Below are positions 11,640-36,749 of a stretch of 64,000 nucleotides of DNA, one piece after another. Below the pieces are notes generated by a model, which did no database searches, was not told where the DNA came from, and saw nothing but the letters and a program-made list of their open reading frames with translations. A program made the translations under genes and the position numbers. This DNA comes from Escherichia coli. GTDB lineage: Bacteria > Pseudomonadota > Gammaproteobacteria > Enterobacterales > Enterobacteriaceae. How positions within the stretch are numbered: position 1 is the first letter of the stretch; each line of letters starts with the position of its first letter. The stretch is taken from assembly GCF_044324785.1 (NCBI RefSeq), contig NZ_CP172127.1; one strand, given 5' to 3'.

Positions 11640-13195
11640 TACGATAAAATCTCTTCGACTTCGTTTTTAATGATGGTGACATGAGGGCCATAAATCACCT
11701 GAACGCCGTTGCCGCGAATAATCACGCCACGCGCTCCGGCCACTTTCAGCGCAGCTTCATCTACCTTACTGCTCTCTTTAACCGTCACGCGCAGGCGCGT
11801 GGCGCAACAGTCCACCTCTTCCAGATTCTCTTTGCCTCCCAGCCCGGCAATGACTGCCGCTGCGCGTTCACTCTGAGGCTGGCCGGATTCAACCTGGGTT
11901 ACGTTCTCACGCCCCGGCGTCAGCCAGCCAAAGCGGTTAATCAAATAGCGGAAAGTAAAGTAGTAAAGGAAGAACCACGGTATTCCCACTATGGGGACAT
12001 ACATCCAGTTTGTTTTAGCTTCCCCCTGCAACACGCCGAAGAGAAGGAAATCGATAAGCCCGCCCGAAAAGGTTTGCCCAATAGTGATATGTAAAATATG
12101 GGCGACCATAAACGCCAGACCATCGAAGAAGGCGTGAATTACGTATAATACGGGCGCGACAAACAGGAAGGAGAACTCAACAGGCTCAGTGATTCCCGTC
12201 AGGAAAGAGGTCAGGGCTGCCGACAAAAGTAGTCCGGCGACAACCTTTCTATTCTCCGGCTTTGCAGTATGGTACATTGCCAGACATGCGCCAAGCAGGC
12301 CAAACATCATGGTGATAAAGCGCCCGGACATAAAGCGAGCGGTACCCGCGTAGAACTGCTGCGTATTCGGATCGGCAAGTTGGGCAAAGAAAATCCGCTG
12401 CGTACCTTCAACCAACTGGCCGTTGACGATTTCACTGCCGCCCAGCGCCGTCGTCCAGAACGGCAAATAAAAGATATGGTGTAAACCCAGTGGACCGAGC
12501 ATACGCAGGATGAAGCCGTACAACAGCGTCCCCAGATAGCCCGTCGCATCCACCAGGTCGCCCAGTCCAAAAATGAGTTTCTGGAAATGCGGCCACACCA
12601 CCGTCATAACCGCACCCACTACTATCGCGGCAAGGGAGCTGATAATGGGTACAAAACGAGAACCACTAAAAAAACCGAGAAACTGAGGTAGTGAGACTTT
12701 ATTGAAACGGCTATGTAAAGTGCAGGTGACGAGACCAATCACCACCCCACCAAACACACCAGTTTCCAGTGTCTGAATACCAAGCGTCATCCCCTGGCCA
12801 ACTGAAGCGGGGTTCTTGTGCGCCAGCGTTCCGTTGAGCGTTAATAAGGCGTTGATGGTGGCATTCATCACCAGAAACGCCAGCAATGACGCAAGCCCGG
12901 CAGTGCCTTTATCCGATTTCGCCAGCCCCACGGCGACGCCGACTGCAAAGAGTACCGACAGGTTGGCAAACACAATAGAACCTGCGCTGGTCATGATTGT
13001 GAATATTGCCTGCAACCAGTCGGCATCTAAAAACGGATAAGCCGTCAACGTGTTTGGATTTGACAACGCGCCACCAATCCCTAATAACAGCCCTGCTGCG
13101 GGCAATACCGCAATCGGCAGCATGAAGGATTTTCCGAACCGCTGCGCTTTTTCAAACCATCCCCCCGATGAAGCGCCGCTAAACATTTGCATCAT
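11639..13195 (-). CDS. PTS EIICB component (glucose/maltose/N-acetylglucosamine family)
   Basis: 518 aa; N-terminal EIIC membrane domain with GITEPxEF motif, C-terminal EIIB domain with CATRLR active-site Cys. Confidence 0.85.
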
Positions 13196-13360
13196 TTTAT
13201 CATCTCCTCGATTTTTGATGAAAATTTTTACTATAATTATTCTTATAAATAAAAATCACCATCAAAATCTAAGAAGTCGATCATACTTTTTTAAAATGTC
13301 TGGCATCAATCCCCTCCTTTCCGTCACACTATCAACAGATAAACGCATTAAGGATTTTAC

Positions 13361-14185
13361 ATGTCAGAAAATGAAAACCTGCTGCTGAGATTGCGCCAGA
13401 GCGTTGATGGATATAGCCGAACACAACAGAAGCTGGGAGAGTTTGTACTTAGCGATCCGGCAAAAGTTGTCTACCTGACGATTACCGAACTTGCGCGTGA
13501 AAGCGGCACCAGCGAGGCTAGCGTCACACGTCTGTGCCGAACGCTTGGGTGTAAGGGCTATAACGAATTCAAAATGGCGCTGGCACTCGATCTCCGACAA
13601 GTACAGTTTGTAGAGCACGGCGGTGATGAGATTGACAATGTGGTCAATGAATCCGTGCAAGCAATACAGGACACAGCAAAATTACTCGACAGAGCCTTGC
13701 TGGAAGCAGCCGCGCTTGCACTGCATCAGGCTCAGTCAGTGCAGATTTATGGCGTAGCAGCCAGTGCCATTCTGGGGGAGTATTTACATTATAAACTCCT
13801 GCGTCTGGGGAAACCCGCACAATTGTTCAGCGATATGCATCGTGCTGCCATGAACGCCACAACACTTAGTAAAAACACGTTCGTGGTGGCGATTTCCAGT
13901 TCTGGATCCACGCGCGATCTGCTGCATGTCGTAAAACTAGCGCGTAAGCAAGGTGTGCGTGTACTGGCGCTGAGTAATACACCGCGCAGTCCGTTAGCTT
14001 CGCTGAGTGATATTCAACTGGTCGCGGCCAAACCGGAAGGACCCTTGAGTGCCGGCGCGCTGACTGCCAAAGTGGGAGTGATGCTGTTGGTAGAGCTACT
14101 CACCACATCGCTGATTGCGCTGGATGACCAGTACAGCGAGGTGAGCCAGAAAACAGCCAGCGCGACCCTACCGCTACTGCTTTAA
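13361..14185 (+). CDS. RpiR/MurR-family transcriptional regulator (HTH plus SIS domain)
   Basis: 274 aa; N-terminal HTH (TITELARESGTSEASVTRLCRTLG) and C-terminal SIS sugar-phosphate-binding domain; divergent from the PTS-nanE operon. Confidence 0.85.
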   Translation: MSENENLLLRLRQSVDGYSRTQQKLGEFVLSDPAKVVYLTITELARESGTSEASVTRLCRTLGCKGYNEFKMALALDLRQVQFVEHGGDEIDNVVNESVQAIQDTAKLLDRALLEAAALALHQAQSVQIYGVAASAILGEYLHYKLLRLGKPAQLFSDMHRAAMNATTLSKNTFVVAISSSGSTRDLLHVVKLARKQGVRVLALSNTPRSPLASLSDIQLVAAKPEGPLSAGALTAKVGVMLLVELLTTSLIALDDQYSEVSQKTASATLPLLL

Positions 14186-14276
14186 AGACATAAAAAACCG
14201 CCGAAGCGCTGGGTGCTCCCCATGAATCAGTGATAATAAACCAACATCATATTCTGGTAGGTTCTGGCGAGGTGAT

Positions 14277-14307
14277 TAAAAACGGTGCTCAGCACCGTTC
14301 GTTTTTA
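14277..14307. terminator. Bidirectional rho-independent terminator
   Basis: Hairpin AACGGTGCT/AGCACCGTT flanked by A-tract upstream and T-tract downstream, between convergent genes. Confidence 0.7.
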
Positions 14308-14341
14308 AATTAGCGAGGAGTATCGTAAGATGCTCTTCCCC

Positions 14342-15685
14342 CTACTTCAGAAAATCCTTCACATCCAGTAGAATAAACTCGTTGTCATCCGCCATATTAG
14401 GCCAGCGGCTGGAGGAAAACGGGAAGTTATTATCGTTGCCTACGATGATGTGGTTAGTGTCAACCACATCCACGTTCTCGATGGTGAAGAACGGGAAGGT
14501 CAGCACACCGTCGTTCAGCGGCTTGCGTGCCAGCTTGTTCGGATCCTGAATCTTCATCAGGTCAATATAGCCCAGTTTTTCGACAGGTTTTCCGACGTTA
14601 GTGTCCGAGAAAGCAATTTTATACACCCGTTTGAACCTGGCTACTTGACTGAAGCAGTTGTTGGTCGGCGCGCCGGCGACGCAGGCTTTATCCGCCGTGC
14701 CTTCGCCGTTATCACGCTCGATCACCAGTCCGTGGGTATCATCTATCATATTGAAGTCGCCGATGGCGTTCTGGTTGTCTTCCAGCACGTACTGCCAGCT
14801 GCGACCAGTCCAGGCCTGCTGTTTGGCATCGAACTCCAGCACACGCAGGTAGCGTTTTCCGTCAACGTTCTCGAACTGCTCACCGTCCCACAATGCCCCT
14901 TCCAGCAGCGGATACAGCTTACTGCCGTCCGGCGAGATGGCCATGCCTTCAAAGCCTTTGGAACGCGCCACCTGGAAGTTCAGCTTACCGTCCGGAGCGC
15001 TAGGTAGAGTCAGCGTCGGGTTGTCCGGCGATTTAACCACCTTACCGTCCACTTCTGTGTCGAACACCGCCAGCACCTTGCCGTTCAGGTCGGTCTTGAT
15101 CAGGTAAGGACCGAACTCATCACCGATCCATAAGGCATCGTCGGAAAACTGGAAGCTTTCCGGATCAAAATCGCTGCCGGTCAGATAGCGTAGTTCGGTG
15201 CTCTCGTTGATGATGTGGAACGGCACCTTTTTATCCGGATCATGCAGGAACAGCGTCTTCAGCGGTACTACCGAGCCGTCTTTGAAATCTATCTTGTATT
15301 GGTTGAGGTACAGCATGGCGTCCGGGGAGTTGGCTTTGCTGCCGAAGCCATTGTCAGTCAGCACCCAATAGGTACCGTCGGGCATGTGTTTGATACCTGA
15401 GTGGCCCTGCAACGGCTGACCATTGATCGGCAGGCTGAGTCCTGTCAGGCGTTCTGCGGATTTGCCCGCCACGCTGCCCAGCTCGGTGACGCGTTTGCCG
15501 CTGGTGTATTTGCCGCTCTGTTGCAAATCGCCCGGCGCATCCTTCGGTGTTGAAACAGCGGATTTTGCCGGCAGAATTGCATGCCCGGCCAGCGTTGCCT
15601 GCACCGGCTGCGCTTTGGCCCACAGGTTGGCGCTCAGAGCCATGCAGCCAACCAGTATAGCCAGCCGGATTTTGGAGTTGTGCAT
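14342..15685 (-). CDS. Secreted protein, esterase-like/phytase-like (beta-propeller) family
   Basis: 447 aa with N-terminal signal peptide; repeated motifs (DNGFG, DEFGP) recalled from the phytase-like family; function uncertain. Confidence 0.5.
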   Translation of the reverse strand: MHNSKIRLAILVGCMALSANLWAKAQPVQATLAGHAILPAKSAVSTPKDAPGDLQQSGKYTSGKRVTELGSVAGKSAERLTGLSLPINGQPLQGHSGIKHMPDGTYWVLTDNGFGSKANSPDAMLYLNQYKIDFKDGSVVPLKTLFLHDPDKKVPFHIINESTELRYLTGSDFDPESFQFSDDALWIGDEFGPYLIKTDLNGKVLAVFDTEVDGKVVKSPDNPTLTLPSAPDGKLNFQVARSKGFEGMAISPDGSKLYPLLEGALWDGEQFENVDGKRYLRVLEFDAKQQAWTGRSWQYVLEDNQNAIGDFNMIDDTHGLVIERDNGEGTADKACVAGAPTNNCFSQVARFKRVYKIAFSDTNVGKPVEKLGYIDLMKIQDPNKLARKPLNDGVLTFPFFTIENVDVVDTNHIIVGNDNNFPFSSSRWPNMADDNEFILLDVKDFLK

Positions 15686-16179
15686 GTCATACTCTCCTTT
15701 CGTTGTTATCGCCCAGAAGTAAAACTAACGTCATTGTAGGGAGCAGAAATGACAGAAATATTATGATTACGGTAGGGATAGCCGTTGCCGGCTTCCCCGC
15801 CATGTCAACGCCGGTATTTATGGTTTCTGTTTGCTTTTCTGTAAAAATAAAGGGGAGAGACGACGGTACTATAAACAACCATGATGAATCTCATCTATTC
15901 GGCCCAGATGAAAGACGCGCGTGAGGCTCTTGTTCGTTAAGCGGATACGTATATCCTGTACAATAATCAGATATACCTCACAGGGTCTAACACTTTATCA
16001 TCAACGAGTTGCAGATCAGATAGTCATACGGTTGCTGCGTGCTTTAGCTGGCTGAATACAGCCTGAAATCATCACCGTAATGACATGATGCCCAGCACAG
16101 CCTTACCTTTCTGGCGGCGATGGCCACAACAGCGCGTCAGTATTCTCTGCGTTCAACCAGTGAACAGACCCAACGACTG

Positions 16180-17010
16180 AATGAGTCAGTCCTTTTCTCA
16201 GCACCAATCAGTACTGAACGAGCCCCCTGAACCAGAAGCATTCGCAGATACGAATCACCGGCTTTTGTTATCCTGCCCAGCTTCGACATTCAGCCGCTGC
16301 TGTATTGTGATAGCGTCAGCCCAGCCAGGCTGCCAGTTGCCGTCCCTTTTTAAAATCATGTGCATTACCGATACAGGCAACCAGCGCACAGGCTGTTGTG
16401 GGACCAACTCCTTTTAGCTCCATCAGCTGTTTAATACGGATATCATCCCTTGCAGCCTCATGAAGACGGTGGTCATGAGACGATATGAGTTCATTTTACT
16501 CTGACAGTTCGCACAACAAACGGATGAAGGGTCATTCCACTGCCCCTGGGCAGTATTCCCTGCTGGATTTTACGCACGTGCCTTATCCCCACAGGCAGCA
16601 GCAGACCAAATTCACTCAACAGCCCCCGGATTTCATTACGCAACGCCGTTCGCTCGCGGATGATTCTGGCCCGGACCCGGTATTCTTCCTGTAACGTCTG
16701 CTGGGATTCCGATATGAAAACAACAAATCGCATGCCGGGCCTGCTGACGGCCTCACAGATGGCAGCTGCATTATTAGCGTCGTTTTTGTTACCTTTGAGA
16801 TAAGATTTGACAAGTTTCTACGGAATAATGCGCACGGTAGGCCCCATACGGAATGAGTTCCCGTGCCCAGAATGGGAAGAGCCACAGACTTCGATGCTGA
16901 TGAGGCAGGGAGAAAGCCCGGAGAAAAACGTCATCATGTGGGGAGGGCTCAGCGTTTTTCTCCGTACCACTATTCATTGTGATCAACGCCGTGGATTTGA
17001 AAAACATTTT
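16180..17010 (-). mobile_element. IS110-family transposase remnant (frameshifted)
   Basis: Minus-strand translations ...NKNDANNAAAICEAVSRPGMRFVVFISESQQ...ALRNEIRGLLSEFGL and ...ELKGVGPTTACALVACIGNAHDFKKGRQLAAWLGL match IS110-family motifs, split across frames. Confidence 0.6.
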
Positions 17011-17179
17011 TCGGCAAGATCGAAACCAATACGATTAATATTCATGACTGACTTCTCCACCAGGGAACTGGGTACATCTCAGTCTGGAACGTTGATGCCG
17101 TAAGGAGGAAGATGTCAATCACATCGGCCTACACGCGATGTTAGCTCAGATAGGCGAAACGTATCCGACATTACACTGG

Positions 17180-18496
17180 TTAAGACTTCGTCGATTTCTC
17201 AAAGCGGCGTAGTAACTGATTCCCACGCTCAACGGCGGTATCCAGCGCCTGCTGTGGCGTCTTCTTACCGGTCCACACGCTCTCAAGCTCTTCATCCACA
17301 ATCGCTCTGATCTGCGGCATGTTGCCCAGACGTAGTCCTTTGGTGAACGGTAACGACGGTTTGTTCAGCATCTGACGTGTCGCGATATCCGCCCCTGGGT
17401 TTTTCTCGTAAAAGCCCTGCTCACGGGTCAGGTCATACGCCGCTTTGGTGATTGGCAGATAACCGGTTTTCTGGTGCCACTCGGCAGCATTTTCTGGCTT
17501 CGCGAGGAAGTCGAGGAACTTCGCCACGCCGGTATACGTTTCTTTATCTTTGCCCTGCATCACCCACAGGCTGGCTCCGCCGATAATGGCGTTTTGTGGT
17601 GCATCTTTCGCGTCAGCGTCGTAAGGCATCATGCCTACGCCGTAGTTGAATTTGGCGTACTCGCGAATGCTGGCAAGAGAACCAGAAGAGGCAGTCGTCA
17701 TTGCGCAATCACCGTTATAGAACTTCTCGGTGGATTCATCCTTACGCCCGACGTAGCTGAAATCGCCTTTCTTGTTCATCTCTTCGAGCATGGCGATGTG
17801 TTTCACCTGCTCCGGCTTGTTGAACTCCAGCACCGCATCTGTGCCGTCAAAGCCGTTGTTTTTGCTGGCAAACGGCAGACCGTTCCAGGCGCTAAAGTTT
17901 TCCAGTTGGATCCAGCCCTGCCAGCCGCTGGAGTAGCCGCACTTCATACCGGAGGCTTTCAGTTTCGCGGCATAGTCCGCCAGATCCTGCCAGGTTTTCG
18001 GCGGCTGTTCCGGGTCTAATCCTGCTTTCTTGAAAGCATCTTTGTTGTAATAGAGAACAGGAGTCGAGCTGTTGAACGGCTGGGAGAGTAAGTGTCCGGT
18101 TTTACTGTCGGAGTAGTAGCCTGAAACCGTCGGCACAAACTGCGACTCATCAAAGTTAATCCCCGCCTCTTTAAACACGTCATACACCGGTTTAATGGCT
18201 TTCGACGCCATCATGGTGGCGGTGCCAACTTCATAAACCTGCAAAATAGCCGGAGCGTTACCGGTACGAAATGCTGCGATCCCCGCACTTAAACTCTCTT
18301 CGTAGTTGCCTTTATAAGTCGGTATAATTTTGTAATCCGGGTTTTCGGCGTTAAAACGTTGGACCAGAGAATTCACCTCTTTACCCAGTTCCCCTTCCAT
18401 AGAGTGCCAGAACGGAATGGTCGTCACTGCCTGTGCATTCCCCATTAACGTCAGTCCGAGCACTAGTGCTGAAGCTGTATAATGTAACGGTTTCAT
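17180..18496 (-). CDS. ugpB: sn-glycerol-3-phosphate ABC transporter periplasmic binding protein UgpB (orphan copy)
   Basis: 438 aa with signal peptide; sequence matches my recollection of E. coli UgpB along its length; no ugpAEC downstream, IS remnants on both sides. Confidence 0.8.
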
Positions 18497-18633
18497 CGTT
18501 TATCTCTCTTGCTTGTTGTACCTGATGAGCGAATTCACACGTTTCATGCTCGTGGGATTAAATATCATGCCCGAATTGCAGAAAAATAACTTTTTTATTA
18601 CATGTGTTAGACAGTAAAGTGTTAGAAAGATGA

Positions 18634-18969
18634 CAGAGCAGTGACGGCACAGGTGAGACGTGGTGGATTGAATTTGATCCTGCTGTTGACAGTGAAATCC
18701 GCAAGACATGTCCGGCAGTGATCGTGAGCAATGACGCAGCAAACAGGAACCTCGCTCGAGTAGTCGTCGTTCCTCTGACCAGTAACACAGAGCGAGTGTA
18801 TCCAAGTGAGGCTGTTGTGACCGTAGGTGTCAGAGCAGCAAAGCGATTGTAGAGCAGATTATGGCGGCGGATAAGTCCTGTCTCAAAACACATATTGGCT
18901 CGTTGTCCAAAGCAGATATGTTGTCTGTTGAGGACGCAATCAAGATCCATCTTGGTTTACTGCGGTAAC
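18634..18969 (+). pseudogene. MazF/PemK-family toxin pseudogene (no in-frame start, internal frameshift)
   Basis: Translation ...GETWWIEFDPAVDSEIRKTCPAVIVSNDAANRNLARVVVVPLTSNTERVYPSEAVV aligns with the PemK/MazF core; C-terminal part is in another frame; no antitoxin ORF upstream. Confidence 0.5.
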
Positions 18970-19559
18970 GCCATGTGAATCTGTCGGCTACCGCCATTAG
19001 TGACGGAATTTTCTGTGGGGCAGCGTACCAATGGCATTCGGTTAAGTTCTTGCTGGAGCATCAAAAGAGTTCCAGCGCGTTCTGGGCCGTACATATTTTC
19101 GTGGGTAACACCTCCCTGGCCTTACTCGCTGAGTCATACAACTGCGATCGATTCAGATGCCATTTTGCAATCAGCCTCTCAGAAAGAGCGCAACAGAATG
19201 ATTTTAAATGTTTTCCTGTTACCCGAATCAGTAAAGACAAGTACCTCACTACGAGAAACAAGCAGTTTTTGAAATTAAAATTTTGTTTATTTCTACTACT
19301 ACCGATGAAAACGTTATTATCTTAATAATTAATGTCATTTCAGGATATCCATGTAAGGTTAAGTAATAATATATGAGCCTGTATTTTTATTTTACATCTT
19401 TCTCACTCTGTGAATGAAAATCTTCAATAGAAAATTTGATTTGAATAATTTATATAACTCTTCTATATTACATCAATGCCGATAGAAATCGTAAAAAGCT
19501 TCGTTTTCATAAAAATCTCTTTCAATAATATTTGTAGCTGGACCAGCCCCTTGAAACGC

Positions 19560-20720
19560 CAGATAGTGGATGTATCTTAAAATAAGAGACAGGCTTGGAT
19601 ATATGTCTGACACTGGTTCTAATTTTGAGATGACTGGAACTTTGCCGGGGCTGGAGCTTCGTAAACGTAAAACTCCTCAGGAAAAAATTGGCATTATTCA
19701 GCAGACAATGGAGCCTGGCATGGCGGTGTCACATGTGGCGCGTTTGCGTTGTATTCAGCCCTGCCTGTTGTTTAAGTGGAAAAACAATCTCTGGAAGGAA
19801 GTCTCACTGCTGTTGCTTCAGGAGAGGGTGTCGTTCCTGCCTCAGAACTGCCTGCCGCTATAAAACAAATAAAAGAGTTACAGCTCTTGCTGGGTAAAAA
19901 ACCATGGAAGTTTAGATCCTCAAAGAAGTGGGTGGTGGAGTATGCGCAATCGCGAAAATGGATAGCGCATGTGCCCTTGTTACCTTCGGACAAGGAATAG
20001 CCCCGGTAAGCCGTGTTCTGGGCGATACTCAGGCGGCAGTCCCTAAATGAAGGACTACCGTTAGTGAATGCAAAGCGCGTTTACCGGATAATGAGCGAAA
20101 ATATCCTGTTGTTACATGACAAACCATCACGACTGCAGCGGGAACATAAAGGCCGAATATCGGTAAGGAAAGCGACCAGCGTTGATGTTCTGATGGCTTT
20201 GAGTTCGGTTGCGATGATGGCGAAAAAGTCCGGGTTACGTTCGCCCTGGACTGTTGCGATCGTGAAGCTATCGACTGGGCATCCAATACGGGAGGTTACA
20301 ATAAAGCGACAGTGCAGGATGTGATGTTAGGAGCGATAGAAAAACTCTTTGGCGATAAAGTACCGGAACAGTCCATCCGGTGGTTGACAGATAACGGTTC
20401 AGCGTATAGAGCGCATGAAACACGGCAGTTCGCCAGAGAGTTGGATCTGGAGCCCTGCACAACGGCAATCAGCAGCTCTCAGAGTAATGGAATGGCAGAA
20501 AGGTTAGTGAAAACGATGAAGGAAGACTACATTGCGTTCATACCGAAACCGAATGTAATAACGGCATTGCATAACCTTGCATAGGCGTTCGAGAATTACA
20601 ATGAGAACCACCCGCATAGTGCGTTAGGTTATCTCTCACCACGGGAATATCGATGTCAGCGGATAACGTCACCTTAGATGTAGCAGTTGCCAAACAGTGA
20701 CTCAAGGGCAGGCTTACCGC
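19560..20720 (+). mobile_element. IS2-like (IS3-family) element remnant with degraded orfA/orfB
   Basis: Fragments RKRKTPQEKIGIIQQTMEPGMAVSHVARL...[28 protein letters not shown] (InsC-like) and ...NAKRVYRIM...[14 protein letters not shown]...[25 protein letters not shown] (InsD-like), broken by stops and frameshifts. Confidence 0.7.
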
Positions 20721-20794
20721 ATACGCTGACACTTAGCTGATCGACAGAATATTATTAACAGTTCATCACTGAACGCTACATAATCAGAGTTGCA

Positions 20795-20820
20795 TAAATA
20801 AAATGTTATGTTATAACATT
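20795..20820. promoter_or_regulatory. Possible Fur-box-like AT-rich hexamer repeats upstream of the TonB-dependent receptor
   Basis: ATAAATAAAATGTTATGTTATAACATT contains partially palindromic NATWAT-like hexamers; weak match. Confidence 0.25.
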
Positions 20821-20843
20821 TTAATACCAACATATGTTTTCGA

Positions 20844-22814
20844 ATGTATATGAATGTAATCAGAACTGTCATTTGTACATTAATTATAGTCCCGGTGGGA
20901 CTACAGGCAGCGACCAGTCATTCTTCTATGGCTAAAGATACAATCACCATTGTCGCGACAGGAAATCAGAACACGGTATTTGAAACGCCGTCGATGGTCA
21001 GTGTCGTCACGAATGACACACCGTGGAGTCAGAATGCGGTTACATCGGCCGGCATGCTGAAAGGTGTTGCCGGTCTCAGCCAGACTGGTGCAGGACGGAC
21101 CAATGGGCAGACCTTTAATCTACGCGGCTATGACAAAAGCGGGGTACTTGTTCTTGTTGACGGCGTCCGCCAACTCAGTGACATGGCAAAAAGCAGTGGC
21201 ACTTATCTGGATCCGGCTCTTGTCAAACGTATCGAAGTTGTCCGCGGGCCAAACTCCAGTCTGTACGGCAGTGGCGGGCTGGGAGGTGTAGTGGACTTCA
21301 GAACTGCCGATGCAGCAGATTTCCTTCCCCCCGGAGAGACAAACGGTTTAAGTCTGTGGGGAAATATTGCCAGTGGTGACCACAGCACAGGCTCGGGGCT
21401 CACCTGGTTCGGTAAAACCGGAAAAACAGATGCGCTCCTTTCTGTCATTATGCGTAAAAGAGGTAATATCTATCAAAGTGATGGTGAGCGCGCACCTAAC
21501 AAGGAAAAACCTGCAGCCCTGTTTGCGAAAGGCTCTGTCGGTATAACAGACAGTAACAAAGCAGGTGCCAGCTTGCGTCTCTACCGGAATAACACCACTG
21601 AACCGGGCAATCCCACTCAGACACATGGTGACAGCGGCCTGCGTGACAGAAAAACAGTACAAAATGACGTACAGTTCTGGTACCAGTACGCTCCTGTGGA
21701 TAACAGCCTCATCAATGTAAAGTCAACGTTATATCTCAGTGATATCACTATCAAGACAAACGGTCACAACAAAACGGCAGAATGGAGAAACAACAGAACC
21801 TCCGGTGTTAATGTTGTCAACAGGAGTCATACTCTGATTTTTCCGGGAGCCCATCAGTTAAGTTATGGCGCTGAATATTACCGTCAGCAGCAGAAGCCAG
21901 AAGGCTCTGCCACACTATATCCGGAAGGAAATATTGACTTTACATCGTTGTATTTCCAGGATGAAATGACAATGAAAAGCTACCCTGTTAACATTATCGT
22001 CGGTTCCCGCTATGACCGGTACAAGAGCTTCAATCCCCGTGCCGGAGAACTGAAAGCCGAACGCCTGTCCCCAAGGGCGGCGATTTCAGTCTCACCGACA
22101 GACTGGCTGATGATGTACGGCTCCATATCCTCTGCATTCCGAGCGCCCACAATGGCAGAAATGTACAGGGATGATGTACATTTTTACCGCAAGGGTAAAC
22201 CCAATTACTGGGTTCCTAACCTTAATCTGAAACCAGAAAATAACATCACCCGTGAGATTGGCGCAGGTATTCAACTGGATGGCCTGCTTACAGACAATGA
22301 CCGGCTGCAGTTAAAAGGCGGATATTTCGGAACGGATGCCAGAAACTATATTGCCACACGCGTGGATATGAAACGGATGCGTTCTTATTCTTATAATGTA
22401 TCCCGGGCCCGTATCTGGGGATGGGATATGCAGGGAAATTACCAGTCTGATTATGTTGACTGGGTGCTTTCTTATAACCGGACGGAAAGTATGGATGCCA
22501 GCAGCAGGGAATGGCTGGGCTCCGGCAATCCTGACACACTTATCAGTGACATCAGCATACCTGTTGGTCATAGAGGCGTTTATGCCGGATGGCGTGCTGA
22601 ACTTTCAGCATCAGCCACGCATGTGAAAAAAGGCGACTCCTATCAGGCTGGCTATGCCATACATTCCTTTTCACTGTCTTATAAGCCTGTAAGTGTTAAA
22701 GGCTTTGAGGCGTCAGTAACTCTGGATAATGCCTTCAACAAGCTTGCCATGAATGGCAAAGGTGTGCCGCTTTCAGGCCGAACTGTCAGTCTTTATACCC
22801 GTTATCAGTGGTAA
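20844..22814 (+). CDS. TonB-dependent outer-membrane heme/hemoglobin receptor (ChuA/ShuA/HmuR family)
   Basis: 656 aa; signal peptide, TonB box DTITIVATG, plug and barrel motifs (GRTNGQTFNLRGYD, LVLVDGVRQ), C-terminal YQW; collinear with ChuA but clearly divergent. Confidence 0.85.
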   Translation: MYMNVIRTVICTLIIVPVGLQAATSHSSMAKDTITIVATGNQNTVFETPSMVSVVTNDTPWSQNAVTSAGMLKGVAGLSQTGAGRTNGQTFNLRGYDKSGVLVLVDGVRQLSDMAKSSGTYLDPALVKRIEVVRGPNSSLYGSGGLGGVVDFRTADAADFLPPGETNGLSLWGNIASGDHSTGSGLTWFGKTGKTDALLSVIMRKRGNIYQSDGERAPNKEKPAALFAKGSVGITDSNKAGASLRLYRNNTTEPGNPTQTHGDSGLRDRKTVQNDVQFWYQYAPVDNSLINVKSTLYLSDITIKTNGHNKTAEWRNNRTSGVNVVNRSHTLIFPGAHQLSYGAEYYRQQQKPEGSATLYPEGNIDFTSLYFQDEMTMKSYPVNIIVGSRYDRYKSFNPRAGELKAERLSPRAAISVSPTDWLMMYGSISSAFRAPTMAEMYRDDVHFYRKGKPNYWVPNLNLKPENNITREIGAGIQLDGLLTDNDRLQLKGGYFGTDARNYIATRVDMKRMRSYSYNVSRARIWGWDMQGNYQSDYVDWVLSYNRTESMDASSREWLGSGNPDTLISDISIPVGHRGVYAGWRAELSASATHVKKGDSYQAGYAIHSFSLSYKPVSVKGFEASVTLDNAFNKLAMNGKGVPLSGRTVSLYTRYQW

Positions 22815-22832
22815 CCTCTCAGGAAATAAATC

Positions 22833-23624
22833 ATGATGAAAAATACAGGCTATATCTTAGCTCTTTGTCTGACAGCATCGGGGCATGTCCTGGCCCATGA
22901 TGTCTGGATTACCGGCAAACAGGCAGAGAACAACGTTATCGCAGAGATTGGTTATGGTCATAATTTCCCCTCAAAGGGCACGATTCCTGACAGAAGGGAT
23001 TTCTTTGAAACTCCCCGGCTTTATAACGGGAAAGAGACAATAACGCTGAAGCCAACATCCACGGATTATGTCTATAAAATTGAGTCTGCAGGCAACGGTA
23101 ATAGCTACGTTCTGTCAACGAAAATGAAACCGGGATACTGGTCGAGAACCTCGTCAGGATGGAAGCCTGTCAGCCGGGAGGGCAGAAATGATGTGGCATA
23201 CTGTGAGTTTGTGACTAAATATGCAAAATCTTTTATTCCTGGTGAACAGCAGATGCCAGCACAACTCTATCAGTATCCAATAGGGGATGAGCTTGAAATC
23301 ATTCCGTTATCCGATATCAGTCGTTTCGGTGAAGATGTGAAGCTGAAAGTTCTGTATAAAACTTCCCCGCTTGCCGGAGCCACTCTGGAGCTTGACTCTG
23401 TCAGTTATCTGAAATCATCCCGCCATACTCATGCGGCAGAGCATAAACATTCGGCTCATAAAGCAGAACTTACCTTTGTAAGTAATGAGGACGGTATCAT
23501 CACTGTACCCTCCCTTCATGTCGGGCAATGGCTAGCTAAAGTCAAAAATAAGAAAGTATTTCAGGACAAAAACCTGTGTGATGAAACTGTCGATGTGGCA
23601 ACCTTAAGCTTCTCCCGAAATTAA
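22833..23624 (+). CDS. Periplasmic DUF4198-like protein co-transcribed with the TonB-dependent receptor
   Basis: 263 aa; signal peptide then HDVWI start of the mature protein, as in DUF4198 proteins; 18 bp after the receptor gene. Confidence 0.5.
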   Translation: MMKNTGYILALCLTASGHVLAHDVWITGKQAENNVIAEIGYGHNFPSKGTIPDRRDFFETPRLYNGKETITLKPTSTDYVYKIESAGNGNSYVLSTKMKPGYWSRTSSGWKPVSREGRNDVAYCEFVTKYAKSFIPGEQQMPAQLYQYPIGDELEIIPLSDISRFGEDVKLKVLYKTSPLAGATLELDSVSYLKSSRHTHAAEHKHSAHKAELTFVSNEDGIITVPSLHVGQWLAKVKNKKVFQDKNLCDETVDVATLSFSRN

Positions 23625-24038
23625 TAATACTATTCCTGCCCTGTAATTTACGGGCAGGGTATATCAACCGGAAATAGCCTACTGACATCCATGTATAAAG
23701 CCACATAATTATTTTGTTGATGTATCTTACCTAATACGTAAGCGTAAAGCCAATGCCGTCTGTAACTCCTGATCCTTGCAGACTAAATGTAAGCGCTCCT
23801 TCTGTGCCGTCTTGTGGTGGTTGTCCTGTCTGGCAACAATCGCGTCCATCTATTGATGGACACGAATGATGAATTCTCAGACAACAAAAGATATCACCGG
23901 CTTTCGCTCTTATTTTCCAGATGTATTGCGACTAATATTCGAAGAGCAATTATCTGTTCGGGCTATCGCACTGGAGCAGTTAGGCCTCAGTCATTCCACC
24001 GTTCATAATATCTTTCAACGGTTTAATGCCTCTGGCAT

Positions 24039-29631: not shown

Positions 29632-32600
29632 ATGAATAAGAATATACGAATTTTACAATTTCTGGTCAGTATACTTTATTCTGTGCAGTCTCATTTTTCT
29701 GGTGCGCAAACAATACAACTGAATGGTAATGGTATACCTGAAAGTATAACCAGGAGTATTACAGGTGTTGATGGAAACGCGGCGCTTAATATCAGCGTGC
29801 CGTATAAAACAAGTTATACTCAAAATATACTATCTGTTGAAAGCAGTATTAACATCAAAGGAGGAACAAGCAATACATCAATCGGTGGTGCAGGTGTCTA
29901 CGGTGAAAACTTTACGCTAAATAATAATGGTAGTGTTTGGGGAGGAGATGGATATAATGGTGGAATTGCTGTTAGTGGCAACAAAATATCTATAAACAAT
30001 TACAGAAATGTATATGGGGGTAATGGTCTTGGTGGCTCAGGAAGTAGCGGAGGTGCAGGGTTAAGCGGGGATGATATTATAGTTGATAATTACAGAAGTA
30101 TATACGGAGGTGATGATGTAGGTGGGACAGGTGGTTCCGGTGTAACCGGTAGCAATATTACAGTGCATAATTCCGGAGGAATATTGGGCGGTAATGGCGT
30201 AAACGGTGGTGATGGTATTAATGGTAGTAATCTTTTCATTACTAACGACAACATGATATCTGGAGGATATGGAATAAAACAAGGGGGAGATGCTATTTCT
30301 GGAAATCAAATCACTTTGAATAATAACGGTATTGTTCAGGGGGGATATGGCCCCGACGGTGGTTGCTCTGTTTATGGAGAAGATATCCATATTAATAATC
30401 ATGGTAATCTTTCAGGATTATATAATAGCCAAAAAGATGCTTATAATACATCAATAATTTTTTCTGGCGGGTATAATTCATTAGATATTTATTCAGATTC
30501 TGTGATTAATGGTGATATTAAACTAGCTAGTATACCTGTTAATGGTACAAATGAATTAATTATTAAAAACATCAATAACGCAACAGCAATTAATGGTGGG
30601 CTAATGATTGGGAATGGCTCATCTGTTTATCTGTCAGGCAAGAACTCCATTTTTAACGGAAATATAAGTATTGATGAAGACGCATCTATGAACCTGTCTG
30701 TAGGAAATGCTAATGTTCACGCAAATACTATTACATTAAAAAGTGATTCATGGCTTAATATAGACACATCAATTAAGAACTGGACTCAGGACTATTACAC
30801 ATTATTGTCGTCAGACACAGGTATCTCGATCGCTGATAATAGTCACATTGTACAATACAATGTATTACTGACAGAAGGTGCTGAAAGTTATGTTTATACG
30901 TCTTTAAATGACGACGATAACAAACTGATATCCATGCTGAGATGGAATAATACAAAAGGGATGGGATATGGAACCTTTAATATAGAAAAAGATGCCACTC
31001 TGAACATAGGCGTTTCTCTTTCCGATAATCTTTCACCTTTATTATATGATGGCTGGGACGGCAAAAGTCTGACAAAATCAGGTAATGGTACTCTTATACT
31101 TTCTGCAACAAACAATTATACAGGAAATACAGAGGTTAAATCTGGCGTATTAATTCTTGCTGCACCTGATGCTCTTGGTCGGACTGAGTATTTATATTTA
31201 TCCCGTGGCGCAGAACTGGATATGAATGGGTATCCTCAGACAATAAGCAAACTACTGACGGCTGCAGGCTCTGTGCTGAACATTCATGGCGGAAGTCTGA
31301 TACTGAATAATGGAGGAGAATCTGCAGGTACTATTGCAGGGGATGGTTCTCTGAACATAAATGGGGGAATGCTTGATATAACGGGTAATAATCGTAATTT
31401 TTCCGGTGTTTTTACCGTGAATAAGGGGGCTCATTTGGCTGTATCCACGGCTGATAATCTGGGGACAGCCTTTGTTGATAACTATGGCACATTAACTCTG
31501 AACAGTACATCAGCATGGCAGCTTACCAACAATATCAGTGGTTATGGTAATGTTCGCAAGACGGGAGCAGGTGCACTGAACATTAGCGATAACGCAAAAT
31601 GGACCGGGATGACAGATATTATTCAGGGGACAGTGATACTGGGGAACGCAGATTCACCGGTGATGCTCGGCAGTAACCAGGTCATTGTTGAAGAGCAGGG
31701 CAAACTCTCCGGGTTTGGGGGCGTTGCAGGAAATCTGAGCAATAGTGGTATAGTCGATCTCACTACATATATGCCGGGTAATATACTGACTGTCGGAGGG
31801 AATTACACTGGCAGAAATGGACTTATTCTCCTCCAGACAGAAACAGGTGGTGACAATTCGAAAACAGATCGTCTGGTGATTAAAGGTAATGCCAGTGGCC
31901 GTACCCGTGTCGCTGTTACTCAGGCCGGTGGTACTGGTGCAGAGACACTTAATGGGATTGAAGTGATTCACGTCAGTGGCAATGCTGATAATGCTGAATT
32001 CATTCAGACGGAACGTATTACAGCCGGAGCTTATGATTACATACTGAAACGTGGTCAGGGGATTAACAGCACTAACTGGTATCTGATTAGCAGAAAAGAC
32101 ATTCCTGTACCACAACCTGAAGCTGTACCGGAAAGCCATGATAATAATTTGCGTCCTGAGGCAGGTAGCTATGTTGCCAGTATTGCTGCTGCAAATAATC
32201 TGTTTGTAACGAATCTGTATGAACGACAGGGACAGGAGTTGTATATCAGCCACATGACAGGAGAAGAAAATGAAGCAGGTATCTGGATGTATAATAAAGG
32301 AAAACATAATCGCTGGCGTGACAACAGTAGTCAGCTGAGAACCCGGGGGAATAGCTACGTTGTGTTAATAGGGGGAGATATAGCTCAGTGGAGCCTGAAT
32401 GGTACCGATCGCTGGCATACAGGTATGATGGCTGGCTATGGTCATAATAATAACAGTACGAATGCCCTGAGCACCGGATACCATTCGGAAGGAAGAATGA
32501 ATGGATACACAGCGGGTCTTTATGCAACATGGTATGCCAATGATGAAACACACAATGGTTCTTATCTTGATAGCTGGCTGCAATACAGCTGGTTTGATAA

Positions 32601-33129
32601 TCATATAAATGGAGAACGGCTGCCTGCTGAGTCATGGAAGTCAAAAGGGTTTACGGTATCTCTGGAAGCAGGATATTCATGGAAGGCTGGAGAGTTTACC
32701 GACAATTACAAGGGAAGTCATGAATGGTATGTTCAGCCGCAGCTTCAGGTTGTCCGGATGAATGTAAAATCAGACAAATATCATGAAAGTAACGGAACCA
32801 GTATTGAAAATACCGGTAACGGAAATATTCTCACCCGCCTGGGAGCAAGAACATGGCTTACCAGCAAAAACGGTAAAAATACGCGGTATGCGGTTCCGTT
32901 CAGACCATTTGTGGAGGCACACTGGTTGCACAATAGTCGTGTTTTCGGCACCAGTATGAATGGTGTAAGTATATACCAGGATGGTGCGCGTGATATCGGA
33001 GAAATAAATGGTGGTGTTGTGGGAATGATAACACCAGAAGTAGCATTCCGGGCTGATGCAGGCATTCAACTTGGAGAACATGGATACCATAATACATCTG
33101 CCATGTTGAGTGTGGAATATCGTTTCTGA
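29632..33129 (+). CDS. Classical (type Va) autotransporter, AIDA-I-like passenger with Gly-rich beta-helix repeats
   Basis: 1165 aa; N-terminal leader, long passenger with repeated GG(x)G(x)G beta-strand repeats, C-terminal beta-barrel translocator ending ...SVEYRF; gene and upstream region visibly AT-rich. Confidence 0.85.
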   Translation: MNKNIRILQFLVSILYSVQSHFSGAQTIQLNGNGIPESITRSITGVDGNAALNISVPYKTSYTQNILSVESSINIKGGTSNTSIGGAGVYGENFTLNNNGSVWGGDGYNGGIAVSGNKISINNYRNVYGGNGLGGSGSSGGAGLSGDDIIVDNYRSIYGGDDVGGTGGSGVTGSNITVHNSGGILGGNGVNGGDGINGSNLFITNDNMISGGYGIKQGGDAISGNQITLNNNGIVQGGYGPDGGCSVYGEDIHINNHGNLSGLYNSQKDAYNTSIIFSGGYNSLDIYSDSVINGDIKLASIPVNGTNELIIKNINNATAINGGLMIGNGSSVYLSGKNSIFNGNISIDEDASMNLSVGNANVHANTITLKSDSWLNIDTSIKNWTQDYYTLLSSDTGISIADNSHIVQYNVLLTEGAESYVYTSLNDDDNKLISMLRWNNTKGMGYGTFNIEKDATLNIGVSLSDNLSPLLYDGWDGKSLTKSGNGTLILSATNNYTGNTEVKSGVLILAAPDALGRTEYLYLSRGAELDMNGYPQTISKLLTAAGSVLNIHGGSLILNNGGESAGTIAGDGSLNINGGMLDITGNNRNFSGVFTVNKGAHLAVSTADNLGTAFVDNYGTLTLNSTSAWQLTNNISGYGNVRKTGAGALNISDNAKWTGMTDIIQGTVILGNADSPVMLGSNQVIVEEQGKLSGFGGVAGNLSNSGIVDLTTYMPGNILTVGGNYTGRNGLILLQTETGGDNSKTDRLVIKGNASGRTRVAVTQAGGTGAETLNGIEVIHVSGNADNAEFIQTERITAGAYDYILKRGQGINSTNWYLISRKDIPVPQPEAVPESHDNNLRPEAGSYVASIAAANNLFVTNLYERQGQELYISHMTGEENEAGIWMYNKGKHNRWRDNSSQLRTRGNSYVVLIGGDIAQWSLNGTDRWHTGMMAGYGHNNNSTNALSTGYHSEGRMNGYTAGLYATWYANDETHNGSYLDSWLQYSWFDNHINGERLPAESWKSKGFTVSLEAGYSWKAGEFTDNYKGSHEWYVQPQLQVVRMNVKSDKYHESNGTSIENTGNGNILTRLGARTWLTSKNGKNTRYAVPFRPFVEAHWLHNSRVFGTSMNGVSIYQDGARDIGEINGGVVGMITPEVAFRADAGIQLGEHGYHNTSAMLSVEYRF

Positions 33130-33150
33130 TGTGTCGGTAATGACTCCAAC

Positions 33151-33654
33151 TTATTGATAGTGTTTTATGTTCAGATAATGCCCGATGACTTTGTCATGCA
33201 GCTCCACCGATTTTGAGAACGACAGCGACTTCCGTCCCAGCCGTGCCAGGTGCTGCCTCAGATTCAGGTTATGCCGCTCAATTCGCTGCGTATATCGCTT
33301 GCTGATTACGTGCAGCTTTCCCTTCAGGCGGGATTCATACAGCGGCCAGCCATCCGTCATCCATATCACCACGTCAAAGGGTGACAGCAGGCTCATAAGA
33401 CGCCCCAGCGTCGCCATAGTGCGTTCACCGAATACGTGCGCAACAACCGTCTTCCGGAGCCTGTCATACGCGTAAAACAGCCAGCGCTGGCGCGATTTAG
33501 CCCCGACATAGCCCCACTGTTCGTCCATTTCCGCGCAGACGATGACGTCACTGCCCGGCTGTATGCGCGAGGTTACCGACTGCGGCCTGAGTTTTTTAAG
33601 TGACGTAAAATCGTGTTGAGGCCAACGCCCATAATGCGGGCTGTTGCCCGGCAT
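33151..33654 (-). CDS. insB: IS1 InsB (made as InsAB by frameshift)
   Basis: 167-aa ORF with IS1 InsB sequence; overlaps insA as in IS1. Confidence 0.85.
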
Positions 33655-33848
33655 CCAACGCCATTCATGGCCATATCAATGATTTTCTGGTGCGTACCGG
33701 GTTGAGAAGCGGTGTAAGTGAACTGCAGTTGCCATGTTTTACGGCAGTGAGAGCAGAGATAGCGCTGATGTCCGGCGGTGCTTTTGCCGTTACGCACCAC
33801 CCCGTCAGTAGCTGAACAGGAGGGACAGCTGATAGAAACAGAAGCCAC
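33573..33848 (-). CDS. insA: IS1 InsA
   Basis: 91 aa [43 protein letters not shown]... Confidence 0.9.
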
Positions 33849-34320
33849 TGGAGCACCTCAAAAACACCATCATACACTAAATCAGTAAGTTGGCAGCATC
33901 ACCCGTTCATTTTCTGAGCCTGTAAAACATGTGGTGATATAGTCTGAGAGCATAAAAGTTGAGATTCTGTGTATCAAGTCCTGTCTTGGCACCGAATGAA
34001 TATTGCTTACGAAGCCCCTTCATGCTTTCCTTGAGAACAATAATTTTATCTTTATGTGAATCTCATTTTTTATAATGATGTCAGATGATTGAAATGCTAA
34101 ATTATATCTGAATCAACTTTTCCTTTGCTAAAGGTATAGAAATAACTGCAAGGCTGTATTTTGTAATTGCCAATTTAAAAATGTCAATTTGTTTTTAATT
34201 ATGTTTTTGTAATAAGTTTGAAGACACAAAAAATAATATAATAACAAAAATCCTCCAGCCTTGTAGGCCAGAGGATAAAATACTTAATTGAGGAAAACAT
34301 CAGGGAAAAGTATTTCTGAC

Positions 34321-35505
34321 TTAACTTTCCCGGCTGGAGAGTGAATCAATGTAATCAGCGTACCATTGCATCATTTCACGGCGGCCATCGAGATACAGGG
34401 CATGATTATAGGTACCCCTGATGGAATTTTTATCCACATGAGCTAACTGCATTTCAATCCAGGCAGAATTAAAGCCCTGTTCGTGCAGAATGGTACTCAT
34501 GGTGTGACGAAAACCATGACCGGTTGCCCTGCCATCGTAACCGATACGTTTGAGCACCATATTGATGCTGGCTTCGCTCATTGGCTTGTTGATATCACAA
34601 CGTCCCGGAAAAACCAGCCGGTATTGCCCGGAGAAAGTTTTGAGCTGCAGCAGAATGTCAGTGGCCTGTCGTGACAGTGGTACGACATGTTTACGTCGCA
34701 TTTTCATGCGGCTTTCAGGGATTGTCCACAGTGCATTATCAAAATCAATTTCTGACCATTCAGCGGACCGTAGCTCAATGGTTCTGAGACCTGTCAGAAG
34801 CAGCAGATTTGTCGCCATGCGGGTAACAGGACTGCCATGATACTCAGCGAGCTTCCGGAGAAAAACAGGGAGCTCATCTGCTCTCAGGTGGGGGAAATGT
34901 GCAGCTTTTGGCGCCGCCAGCGTACTGGTCAGTTCAGATGCCGGATTGACAGTGGCTCGTCCGGTGGCGATGGCATAACGAAAAATCTGATTACAGTATT
35001 GACGCACCTTACGAAGTTTTTCCAGCGAGCCACGTTTTTCTATGCGGCGCAGAATTTCCAGCATTTCCAGCGGGAGGATATCCGTAACGCTTCGTTTGCC
35101 CAGATACGGGAAAATATCTTTATCCAGCGCTTCCAGTACGCTTCTGGCGTAACTTTCAGACCATGACAAAGATTTATGCTGGTGCCATTCCGTAGCGAGG
35201 GCATGGAACGTATTGGTGGCAGAGATTTTCTGAGTGAGTTTTTCCTTTCGCTTCTTTTCGCCCGGGTCACCACCTTCGGAGATGATTTTTCGGGCATCGT
35301 CGCGTTTGATTCTGGCCTCAGCAAGGGAGACGTCGGGATAGACGCCGAGGGCCAGTTTTTTCTCTTTTCCTGCTATCCGGTATTTAAGCCGCCAGTAGCG
35401 GGCACCCGTGGTTTTTACCAGCAGATATAAACCACGTTCGTCAGAGAGTTTATAGTCTTTTTCTTTAGGTCTGGCTGTTTCGACCTGTCTGGCTGTAAGT
35501 GCCAT
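34321..35505 (-). CDS. int: P4-type tyrosine integrase
   Basis: About 394 aa from MALTARQVETARPKEKDYKLSDERGLYLLVK (P4-int N-terminus); C-terminal catalytic region with GHGFRHT and Tyr; next to the tRNA-Phe 3' fragment. Confidence 0.9.
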   Translation of the reverse strand: MALTARQVETARPKEKDYKLSDERGLYLLVKTTGARYWRLKYRIAGKEKKLALGVYPDVSLAEARIKRDDARKIISEGGDPGEKKRKEKLTQKISATNTFHALATEWHQHKSLSWSESYARSVLEALDKDIFPYLGKRSVTDILPLEMLEILRRIEKRGSLEKLRKVRQYCNQIFRYAIATGRATVNPASELTSTLAAPKAAHFPHLRADELPVFLRKLAEYHGSPVTRMATNLLLLTGLRTIELRSAEWSEIDFDNALWTIPESRMKMRRKHVVPLSRQATDILLQLKTFSGQYRLVFPGRCDINKPMSEASINMVLKRIGYDGRATGHGFRHTMSTILHEQGFNSAWIEMQLAHVDKNSIRGTYNHALYLDGRREMMQWYADYIDSLSSRES

Positions 35506-35680
35506 ATGGGGGCTCCTGAAACTGACTGAACACAATGAGCCCCCACCGGGGCCCCCAATGAACGCTTGATTGAGAGAGAGTTCAGTAGAGTCTGGTGGAG
35601 TTCAGAATGTTCAGATTGCTTGTAACGATGTGATTATACTTGAGTTTCGTGGAGTTCGGGAGATGAATCTGGAAGTGAAA

Positions 35681-35730
35681 GTGGTGCCCGGACTCGGAAT
35701 CGAACCAAGGACACGGGGATTTTCAATCCC
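35681..35730 (-). other. Partial tRNA-Phe gene, 3' 50 nt only (displaced attachment-site copy)
   Basis: Minus-strand sequence equals the 3' 50 nt of E. coli tRNA-Phe (as I recall it) including anticodon loop and CCA; identity stops where the 5' half should be. Confidence 0.8.
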
Positions 35731-35782
35731 CGTGCCATAATTGGCTGTGTCAGTTGGTTACACACCATTGAGGTGTGTACTA

Positions 35783-36661
35783 ATGAAAATACTGCCCGTT
35801 GTCTCCACAAAAGGTGGCGAAGGTAAATCAACACAATCCGCAAACCTGGCTGGTTTTCTCGCCGATGCAGGTATCCGTACCCTGCTGATTGACGGAGATC
35901 ATGCTCAGCCCACGGCAAGCAACATCTTTCCGCTGACATATGAAGCGTCAGCCGGTCTTTTTGAGTTGCTGATGCGCACGGCTGACCTCAGTCATCCCGA
36001 TAACATCATTTCCCGCACGGCTATCGACGGACTCGATCTGATAGTCTCCAATGACCCTCATGAGCAGTTAAAAACTGCGATGCTTCACGCCCCGGATGGT
36101 CGTCTGCGCCTCCGGAATGTCCTGCAGCATCCGCTTTTTCTGAACAACTACGATGTCATTGTAGTTGATTCTCAGGGAGCACGTTCTGTCATGCTCGAAA
36201 TGATTATGCTGTCGGCCACTGATTCGGTTGTCGGGATGGTCAATCCGGTACTCCCTGATGTGCGCGAGTTTATTCGGGGCACTGTCAATGTTATGGAGAA
36301 CCTGCTGCCTTACCGGGAGCTGGGGATACCCCTGCCGAAAGTACGCACGCTGGTTAACTGCATGGATTATACGGCACTGGCCAGGAAGACGCTGGATGAG
36401 CTGGCCGGAATTATTCAGACCGGTCGTTACAGCAGACAGTTACCTGAAGGTGCGGTTTCCCTTCTTTCCACACAGATTTACGACCTGAATATTTACAAGC
36501 AGGGGCATGCGGCTGGTCAACCCGTACATCGTCTCGAAAAAGAATCCACACGTCGCAGTGATTCCGCGCTTGTCACGATGCACAGCCTGGCCTGTGAACT
36601 CTTTCCTGAGTGGAAACAGGCGTTTGACGGGCTGCTGGCGAACGGGGGAATACGTCAGTGA
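35783..36661 (+). CDS. parA: ParA/Soj-family partition ATPase
   Basis: MKILPVVSTKGGEGKSTQSANLA deviant Walker A; first gene inside the ICE boundary. Confidence 0.9.
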   Translation: MKILPVVSTKGGEGKSTQSANLAGFLADAGIRTLLIDGDHAQPTASNIFPLTYEASAGLFELLMRTADLSHPDNIISRTAIDGLDLIVSNDPHEQLKTAMLHAPDGRLRLRNVLQHPLFLNNYDVIVVDSQGARSVMLEMIMLSATDSVVGMVNPVLPDVREFIRGTVNVMENLLPYRELGIPLPKVRTLVNCMDYTALARKTLDELAGIIQTGRYSRQLPEGAVSLLSTQIYDLNIYKQGHAAGQPVHRLEKESTRRSDSALVTMHSLACELFPEWKQAFDGLLANGGIRQ

Positions 36662-36749
36662 TTCAGGTTAAGCGAGAACCATGCAGCTCCGTTACCCTGG
36701 CTTATGGACGTTATCAATACCGGACAATATGACGAGAAGGATTAACCCT

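Follow-up and report, generated by a model that had tools for sequence, protein, structure and literature searches.

A second ugpB gene in a mobile island block of Escherichia coli, parted from ugpAEC beside an IS110-family element

The ugpB gene and the ugp fragment around it

The window, that is the whole stretch of DNA analysed here, comprises 64,000 nucleotides from Escherichia coli (assembly GCF_044324785.1, contig NZ_CP172127.1) and carries in island DNA a gene for the binding protein UgpB that is not accompanied by the other genes of the ugp operon. Downstream of it lie a decayed insertion sequence (IS) of the IS110 family and a gene for an exported phytase-like esterase, and upstream of it a PemK/MazF toxin pseudogene and a decayed IS2-like element. 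An earlier note on this DNA, made from the sequence alone, had described the gene as a full-length orphan ugpB stranded between IS remnants, either a captured or relocated piece of the ugp operon or a solo binding protein that was repurposed.

The gene occupies positions 17180-18496 on the (-) strand and encodes 438 amino acids in an uninterrupted frame, with a signal peptide ending in AQA. A profile search gave 931.9 bits against the NCBIfam equivalog NF008211 for UgpB, the cut-off of which is 411 bits, and thus the full-length UgpB-like gene of the earlier note is indeed present; the Pfam families SBP_bac_8 and SBP_bac_1 match the protein as well. It shares 97% identity and equal length with UgpB from E. 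coli K-12 (b3453), and the solved E. coli UgpB structures (PDB 4AQ4 and 6X84) align with it over the whole length. Glu66 and Trp169 (mature numbering; E89 and W192 of the precursor), which the literature on UgpB names as ligand-site residues, are unchanged, and the 23-residue export signal peptide is intact. Island and K-12 UgpB are separated by 13 substitutions, all of them conservative, with A166S sitting three residues ahead of Trp169. RefSeq already names the product UgpB (WP_000803221.1), and our literature searches found no paper on this island copy. Judged by its sequence the island gene is a solid member of the UgpB family, while the operon context of a canonical ugpB is absent.

In order to define the limits of the ugp fragment we compared the K-12 ggt-ugpQCEAB-livFGMH region with the whole window using BLAST. 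The sole match covers 17125-18657 with 93.15% identity over 1533 bp, and no match to ugpA, ugpE, ugpC or ugpQ was obtained anywhere in the window, which for the first three agrees with the earlier note. Upstream of the gene the alignment to K-12 retains a promoter fragment of 161 bp (18497-18657, (-) strand), so that ugp similarity begins 161 bp before the ugpB start codon and the run of Pho-box repeats is kept. Downstream a remnant of the ugpB-ugpA spacer is left (17125-17179, (-) strand), and similarity stops 55 bp beyond the ugpB stop codon at GTAGGCCG on the ugpB sense strand, which are the first bases of the repetitive extragenic palindromic (REP) sequence between ugpB and ugpA in K-12. 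This 3' end is the exact site of the IS110-family element. The window ugpB is therefore a captured fragment of 1.53 kb from an Escherichia-type ugp operon, with sharp ends at -161 and in the ugpB-ugpA REP and a sequence distinct from that of all canonical E. coli ugpB genes; the capture put forward in the earlier note stands, and its alternative of a relocation is taken up below.

Canonical ugpB is a gene of the Pho regulon. The candidate Pho box of the island copy, CTGTCATCTTTCTAACAC, lies at 18619-18636 on the (-) strand and corresponds to TTGTCATCTTTCTGACAC in K-12, both sites agreeing with the consensus at 14 of 18 positions. As both carry four mismatches, a strict search for the Pho-box consensus with at most three mismatches gave no match. 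A Pho box has been described as a pair of 11-bp repeats in both of which CTGTCAT is conserved (PMC2648988). A scan for sigma-70 promoters and terminators near ugpB found nothing above chance, which for sigma-70 is expected because the ugpB promoter has no -35 box.

The two breakpoints of the fragment

The IS110-family element at the 3' breakpoint extends on the (-) strand from ~15790 to 17124-17132 (~1.34 kb), its ends having been set by comparison with related copies on plasmid pTW10722 and in E2348/69. The IS110 remnant that the earlier note had placed downstream of ugpB is thus present and decayed as described, but it is full length in extent and begins to the left of 16180. Its transposase pseudogene (16044-17045, (-) strand) is annotated by the Prokaryotic Genome Annotation Pipeline (PGAP) as frameshifted with an internal stop, and a tblastn comparison with an intact IS110-family transposase showed 36-80% identity and several frame changes and stops. 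The element is a mosaic: the half next to ugpB, encoding the transposase N-terminus, resembles the E2348/69 remnant (87% DNA identity), and the other half, encoding the C-terminus, resembles the pTW10722 copy (91% DNA identity), with no detectable DNA similarity between these two elements. Its far (left) flank runs straight into the promoter of the esterase gene. In strain 104 the left end of this element is precisely the site into which a true IS2 has inserted (window 15789-15794; L107 1806-3034).

The (+)-strand sequence of the junction is ...GTCAATCACATCGGCCTAC followed directly by ACGCGATG, and K-12 has ...TTATCCGGCCTACACGCGATG at that site. The REP-tail side of the junction reads ATCGGCCTAC, where K-12 has ATCCGGCCTAC. 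An independent related IS in E2348/69 has this REP-tail junction too, ending in ...CATCACATCGGCCTAC followed by GCAAGC, with REP-like sequence on its other side. IS621 is known to insert into REP sequences at ATCAGGCCTAC or ATCGGGCCTAC (PMC11208160), and the window element resembles IS621 and other REP-targeting IS110 elements (PMC11208160; PMC1525189) in that the REP tail ...ATCGGCCTAC borders on its end; the sequence targeted by IS621 is ATC[A/G]GGCCTAC. It differs from IS621 as another, mosaic and decayed member of the family, the longer non-coding end of which lies downstream of the transposase gene. An Rfam scan of 13000-24000 found no RNA family and hence no match to a guide RNA for the element. 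Taken together, the 3' breakpoint appears best explained by a REP-targeted insertion of an IS110-family element between ugpB and ugpA.

At the other end the ugp promoter fragment meets the PemK/MazF toxin pseudogene (18658-18968, (+) strand), which lacks codons 1-3, contains one frameshift near 18836-18860 and has no antitoxin gene. The earlier note had described a toxin without start codon, frameshifted and without antitoxin, and all of this is borne out; beyond codons 1-3 at the N-terminus, just the promoter and the antitoxin gene have been lost. After repair of the frameshift the protein covers positions 3-108 of 109 of PF02452 (PemK_toxin) with 77.7 bits and is 81% identical to residues 4-108 of the 108-aa toxin on plasmid pSTEC640_4. 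On this plasmid the antitoxin gene stands directly upstream of the intact toxin gene, at the place taken by ugpB promoter DNA in the window. The two sequences join at GGTGAG, which is common to the ugp promoter and the toxin codons for 'GE', and therefore an illegitimate, microhomology-mediated join is suggested. Such a join seems to have removed the antitoxin gene together with three toxin codons.

Beyond the toxin pseudogene an AT-rich spacer leads to a decayed IS3-family remnant of the IS2 group (19630-20677, (+) strand), annotated by PGAP as a frameshifted gene and containing fragments of the Pfam families HTH_Tnp_1 and rve. IS2 aligns colinearly with it at 69% DNA identity over 19678-19984 and 20067-20662, as expected from the IS2-like remnant named in the earlier note.

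From both breakpoints we propose that an IS110-family element, behaving like IS621, would have inserted into the REP between ugpB and ugpA, and that the later illegitimate join at GGTGAG inside pemK would have parted ugpB from ugpAEC.

An additional copy in a conserved mobile block

A solitary ugpB could in principle be the sole ugpB of its genome, moved away from ugpAEC by a simple rearrangement. The region 15900-20900 of the window is 100% identical to several complete genomes, among them strain CLSC36, in which the RefSeq annotation shows the features named in the earlier note, and in CLSC36 the order livF-ugpB-ugpA-ugpE-ugpC-ugpQ-yhhA-ggt is intact in its native place. A search for the canonical operon and a comparison of the copies, as proposed in the earlier note, thus found the complete ugpBAECQ in a carrier of the block and an island copy that is distinct from it. 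A match to 80% or more of the 1.53-kb fragment was present in 5422 of the 5426 complete E. coli genomes searched. Canonical copies account for 5223 records at 91.9-93.4% identity over the fragment, 194 records show at least 99% and six show 95-99%; none of the matches lies on a plasmid. Among the matches listed, every carrier of the island copy has two or more ugpB matches, and over the fragment the island copy is ~7% diverged from every canonical copy. The island ugpB is therefore an additional, horizontally acquired copy that leaves the canonical ugpBAECQ intact in carrier genomes. A relocated ugpB, the second option of the earlier note, does not agree with the intact livF-ugpBAECQ-yhhA of CLSC36, in which the island copy is an extra match, and the scenario of a genome with no other ugpB and with ugpAEC placed elsewhere by rearrangement is excluded in the sequenced carriers by their canonical locus, so that we regard a simple rearrangement as extremely improbable. 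The six E. coli records at 95-99% identity may be older island alleles or recombinants.

The island coding sequence shows 94.2-95.0% DNA and 96.6-97.0% protein identity to three canonical E. coli alleles, with a synonymous divergence (dS) of 0.19-0.25 and a ratio of nonsynonymous to synonymous divergence (dN/dS) of 0.06-0.09; the canonical alleles share 95.1-96.9% DNA identity among themselves. Fixed differences at 39 nucleotides set the island copy apart from the canonical one. To ugpB of Escherichia albertii the coding sequence is 93.9% identical in DNA and 96.1% in protein. With one genome per species, the matches listed for the fragment give 92.6% DNA identity for E. coli and 92.1% for E. 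albertii, and the next genera reach at most 85%, so that the donor should be an Escherichia-level relative. The donor lineage itself was not found among the one-per-species genomes, in the protein database or with two further queries: a large protein database puts all Escherichia UgpB into one 90% cluster and gave no resolution, a chimeric query of island ugpB and K-12 ugpA gave nothing above ~93.4% in the ugpB part, and a 22-mer from the island 3' flank matched five metagenome contigs, all of which carry the same block as the window.

This block, pemK'-ugpB-IS110'-phytase-like esterase, is conserved over 4.7 kb and has identical junctions in different islands. It was found beside selC, beside an integrase gene near yqgA-speC, in a third island with porin and glycoside-hydrolase genes close by, and on the 5 metagenome contigs. 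The blocks of the window and of strain Z1323CEC0009 differ at 15 sites in 4.7 kb. One metagenome contig (L103 1-182; ugpB 1189-1212) has canonical-type bases at four island-specific sites near the contig end, representing either an assembly chimera or a short patch of gene conversion between ugpB copies.

The wider surroundings recall AGI-3, which avian pathogenic E. coli strain BEN2908 carries as a genomic island associated with selC (Chouikha et al. 2006, as cited in PMC3349570), in that the same 34-kb segment with carbohydrate-uptake genes adjoins selC and an integrase gene in CLSC36. In the window the segment differs from AGI-3, as it abuts an integrative element of the Salmonella pathogenicity island 7 (SPI-7) type and no tRNA gene. 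Within ~34340-42000 this element carries genes for ParA, ParB, an island-type DnaB and an integrase, and no complete genome in the collection covers at least 80% of 30000-42000. The presence of selC inside the window was rejected, since no tRNA gene was detected anywhere in it and it departs from CLSC36 at ~34.3-34.5 kb. The tkt1 island was also rejected as context, being a separate locus between metE and ysgA.

The IS2-like remnant is closely followed by a gene for a TonB-dependent receptor that belongs to the haem/haemoglobin family (20844-23624, (+) strand; TIGR01785, 414 bits, the cut-off being 317), and after this comes a DUF4198 gene. Further along, the island carries an autotransporter gene of 3498 bp (window ~29632-33129; L001 33733-37230). 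A plasmid of a pigeon isolate has a gene of equal length close to its esterase and PhoX genes (L096 1-420), which hints at a shared ancestry of island and plasmid. Presumably 3498 bp is also the length of the avian E. coli adhesin gene aatA.

Maintenance, linked esterase and possible function

To take a closer look at the maintenance of the island gene we compared its alleles. The ugpB genes of the window and of Z1323CEC0009 differ at six sites and all six are synonymous. Among alleles that were not picked by protein sequence, 8 polymorphic sites are synonymous and 1 is nonsynonymous, a pattern with P ~1e-4 on the assumption that one mutation in four is synonymous. Most of the variant bases agree with the canonical state; even so, the canonical copy is unlikely to have supplied them by gene conversion, as island-specific sites 2-15 nt away are kept. 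Allele differences that are almost only synonymous suggest that the island ugpB is still under selection. We count this evidence, together with the breakpoint at REP and IS110-family element, as the most useful results of the analysis.

These data also bear on the possibility that the island ugpB is a functionless passenger that travelled by chance with the IS110-family element and the esterase gene and owes its intact state solely to a recent spread of the block. In favour of this, the alleles are 99.5-100% identical, the resident UgpB renders the island gene redundant, its promoter fragment has been lost to an IS1 in one genome, and amino-acid change on its lineage is elevated. The excess of synonymous polymorphism speaks against it, as does a protein that is exactly conserved despite up to six silent differences between alleles of different islands and that is indexed in 5224 blocks of the assembly collection. 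Furthermore, the transposase and toxin genes of the same block are broken, and the ugpB and esterase genes are intact. We therefore find a mere passenger unlikely, if still worth serious attention.

The esterase gene (14342-15685, (-) strand) encodes an intact exported protein of 447 aa with an 'esterase-like activity of phytase' domain (PF13449, E = 5e-61). It is carried by 228 E. coli genomes and is linked to ugpB in the same direction in 10 of 10 contexts from an exact-protein look-up and in strain Z1323CEC0009. Upstream of it a candidate PhoB-type promoter was noticed at 15733-15766 on the (-) strand (TCATAATATTTCTGTCAT, 10 bp, TACAAT), and the arrangement of CTGTCAT, ~10 bp and TAnnnT is kept upstream of homologues from an E. 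coli plasmid, Serratia and Providencia. By pattern match the 18-mers of these promoters agree with 13-14 of 18 positions of the Pho-box consensus, and the esterase may thus be an undescribed member of the Pho regulon. On the plasmid of the pigeon isolate a copy with 92.8% DNA identity lies next to a PhoX phosphatase gene (L096 4758-8358), and some databases label close homologues 'glycerophosphodiester phosphodiesterase'.

It could thus be possible that the diverged solo UgpB and the exported esterase form a mobile, Pho-regulated pair for organophosphate scavenging, or that the main task of this UgpB is that of a chaperone or sensor partner and not glycerol-3-phosphate transport. The constant, co-oriented linkage of the two genes, the Pho-box-like promoters before both, the PhoX gene adjoining the plasmid esterase, the database label and the faster amino-acid change of the island lineage, including A166S near Trp169, would agree with such a specialised role. 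In Serratia and Providencia, however, the esterase genes stand alone and have no ugp or pho neighbours, the linkage may have arisen as a by-product of the insertion sequence, the 13 substitutions are conservative without exception and the Pho-box calls are pattern matches only, and so we regard a specialised role as quite improbable. In its most explicit form, which we put forward as a speculation with little chance of being right, the pair would be PhoB-controlled, the esterase would free a phosphorylated product from organophosphates of host or feed, and UgpB would capture this product for UgpAEC or guard the periplasm from bile, to the advantage of poultry-associated and extraintestinal E. 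coli.

As the Pho boxes, the export signal and the intact frame are all kept, the most economical reading of the sequence is a PhoB-induced extra dose or slight variant of UgpB. Glycerol-3-phosphate and glycerophosphocholine are ligands of UgpB, which in its ligand-free form is a bile-responsive chaperone and the over-production of which leads to bile resistance (PMC8144458). In a pst mutant of avian pathogenic E. coli ugpB was induced 40-fold (PMC2648988). PhoB would accordingly be expected to switch the island ugpB on under phosphate limitation, the exported protein would bind glycerol-3-phosphate or glycerophosphodiesters in the periplasm as an additional binding protein, and it might feed the resident UgpAEC and/or join the bile-protective chaperone pool of UgpB. 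That the second ugpB of this island block is such a PhoB-induced extra binder, sharing the resident UgpAEC and/or adding chaperone, is in our judgement rather probable.

Several observations weigh against this reading. In the genome L092 (CP073976.1) an IS1 (L092 7272-7969) sits 31 bp upstream of the ugpB start and has removed the promoter fragment, and therefore the Pho-box-driven expression inferred here cannot operate in L092. Island alleles are only 0-0.5% diverged, so that 9 sites are all that the test for selection can draw on. The private codon changes of the island lineage amount to 9 nonsynonymous and 18 synonymous, compared to 5 and 59 for four canonical lineages pooled (Fisher P = 0.004). 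As the synonymous rates of island and canonical lineages are equal, the protein must have changed faster at some stage and was then conserved, and relaxed constraint would fit this raised nonsynonymous change as well as adaptation. The canonical operon of the window's own genome is deduced from the other carriers. Finally, the other REP half is not recognisable in the left flank of the IS110-family element; the capture pathway is only partly reconstructed, and further rearrangement must have removed ugpAEC. The solo binding protein may have been repurposed, as the earlier note also suggested; selection seems to maintain the gene, and the protein has changed faster than the canonical copies.

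If the island ugpB is expressed and functional, a single component of an ATP-binding cassette (ABC) transporter would have been mobilised alone and retained under selection. In that case a binding protein would be valuable without its own permease, be it through gene dosage, an altered ligand range or chaperone activity, and poultry and extraintestinal E. coli might have phosphate scavenging or bile tolerance among their accessory traits. An inert copy would be no more than an ordinary piece of the island mosaic. The REP breakpoint beside an IS110-family element is a natural example of operon splitting and gene mobilisation.

Among known systems the island UgpB is closest to the canonical UgpB of the UgpBAEC importer, which it resembles in sequence, length, signal peptide, Pho-box fragment and the residues Glu66 and Trp169. 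It differs from it in having no adjacent ugpA, ugpE, ugpC or ugpQ, in its location on mobile islands, in a promoter cut at -161, and in the 13 substitutions to K-12 UgpB with the raised nonsynonymous rate on the island lineage. Its arrangement also recalls LivJ and LivK with LivHMGF, and HisJ and ArgT with HisQMP, in which extra binding proteins share one ABC translocator. As in these cases, a second binding-protein gene is found beside just one set of permease and ATPase genes in the genome, and functionally the island UgpB resembles this known arrangement of an extra binding protein sharing a transporter. In contrast, the LivJ/LivK and HisJ/ArgT pairs are old, encoded on the chromosome and distinct in their range of substrates, whereas the island UgpB is a recent, island-borne and near-identical foreign copy, whose docking to UgpAE is putative. 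A further likeness is to the bile chaperone role of UgpB (Lee et al. 2020, reviewed in PMC8144458), which needs the binding protein alone and could thus putatively be supplied by a solo copy.

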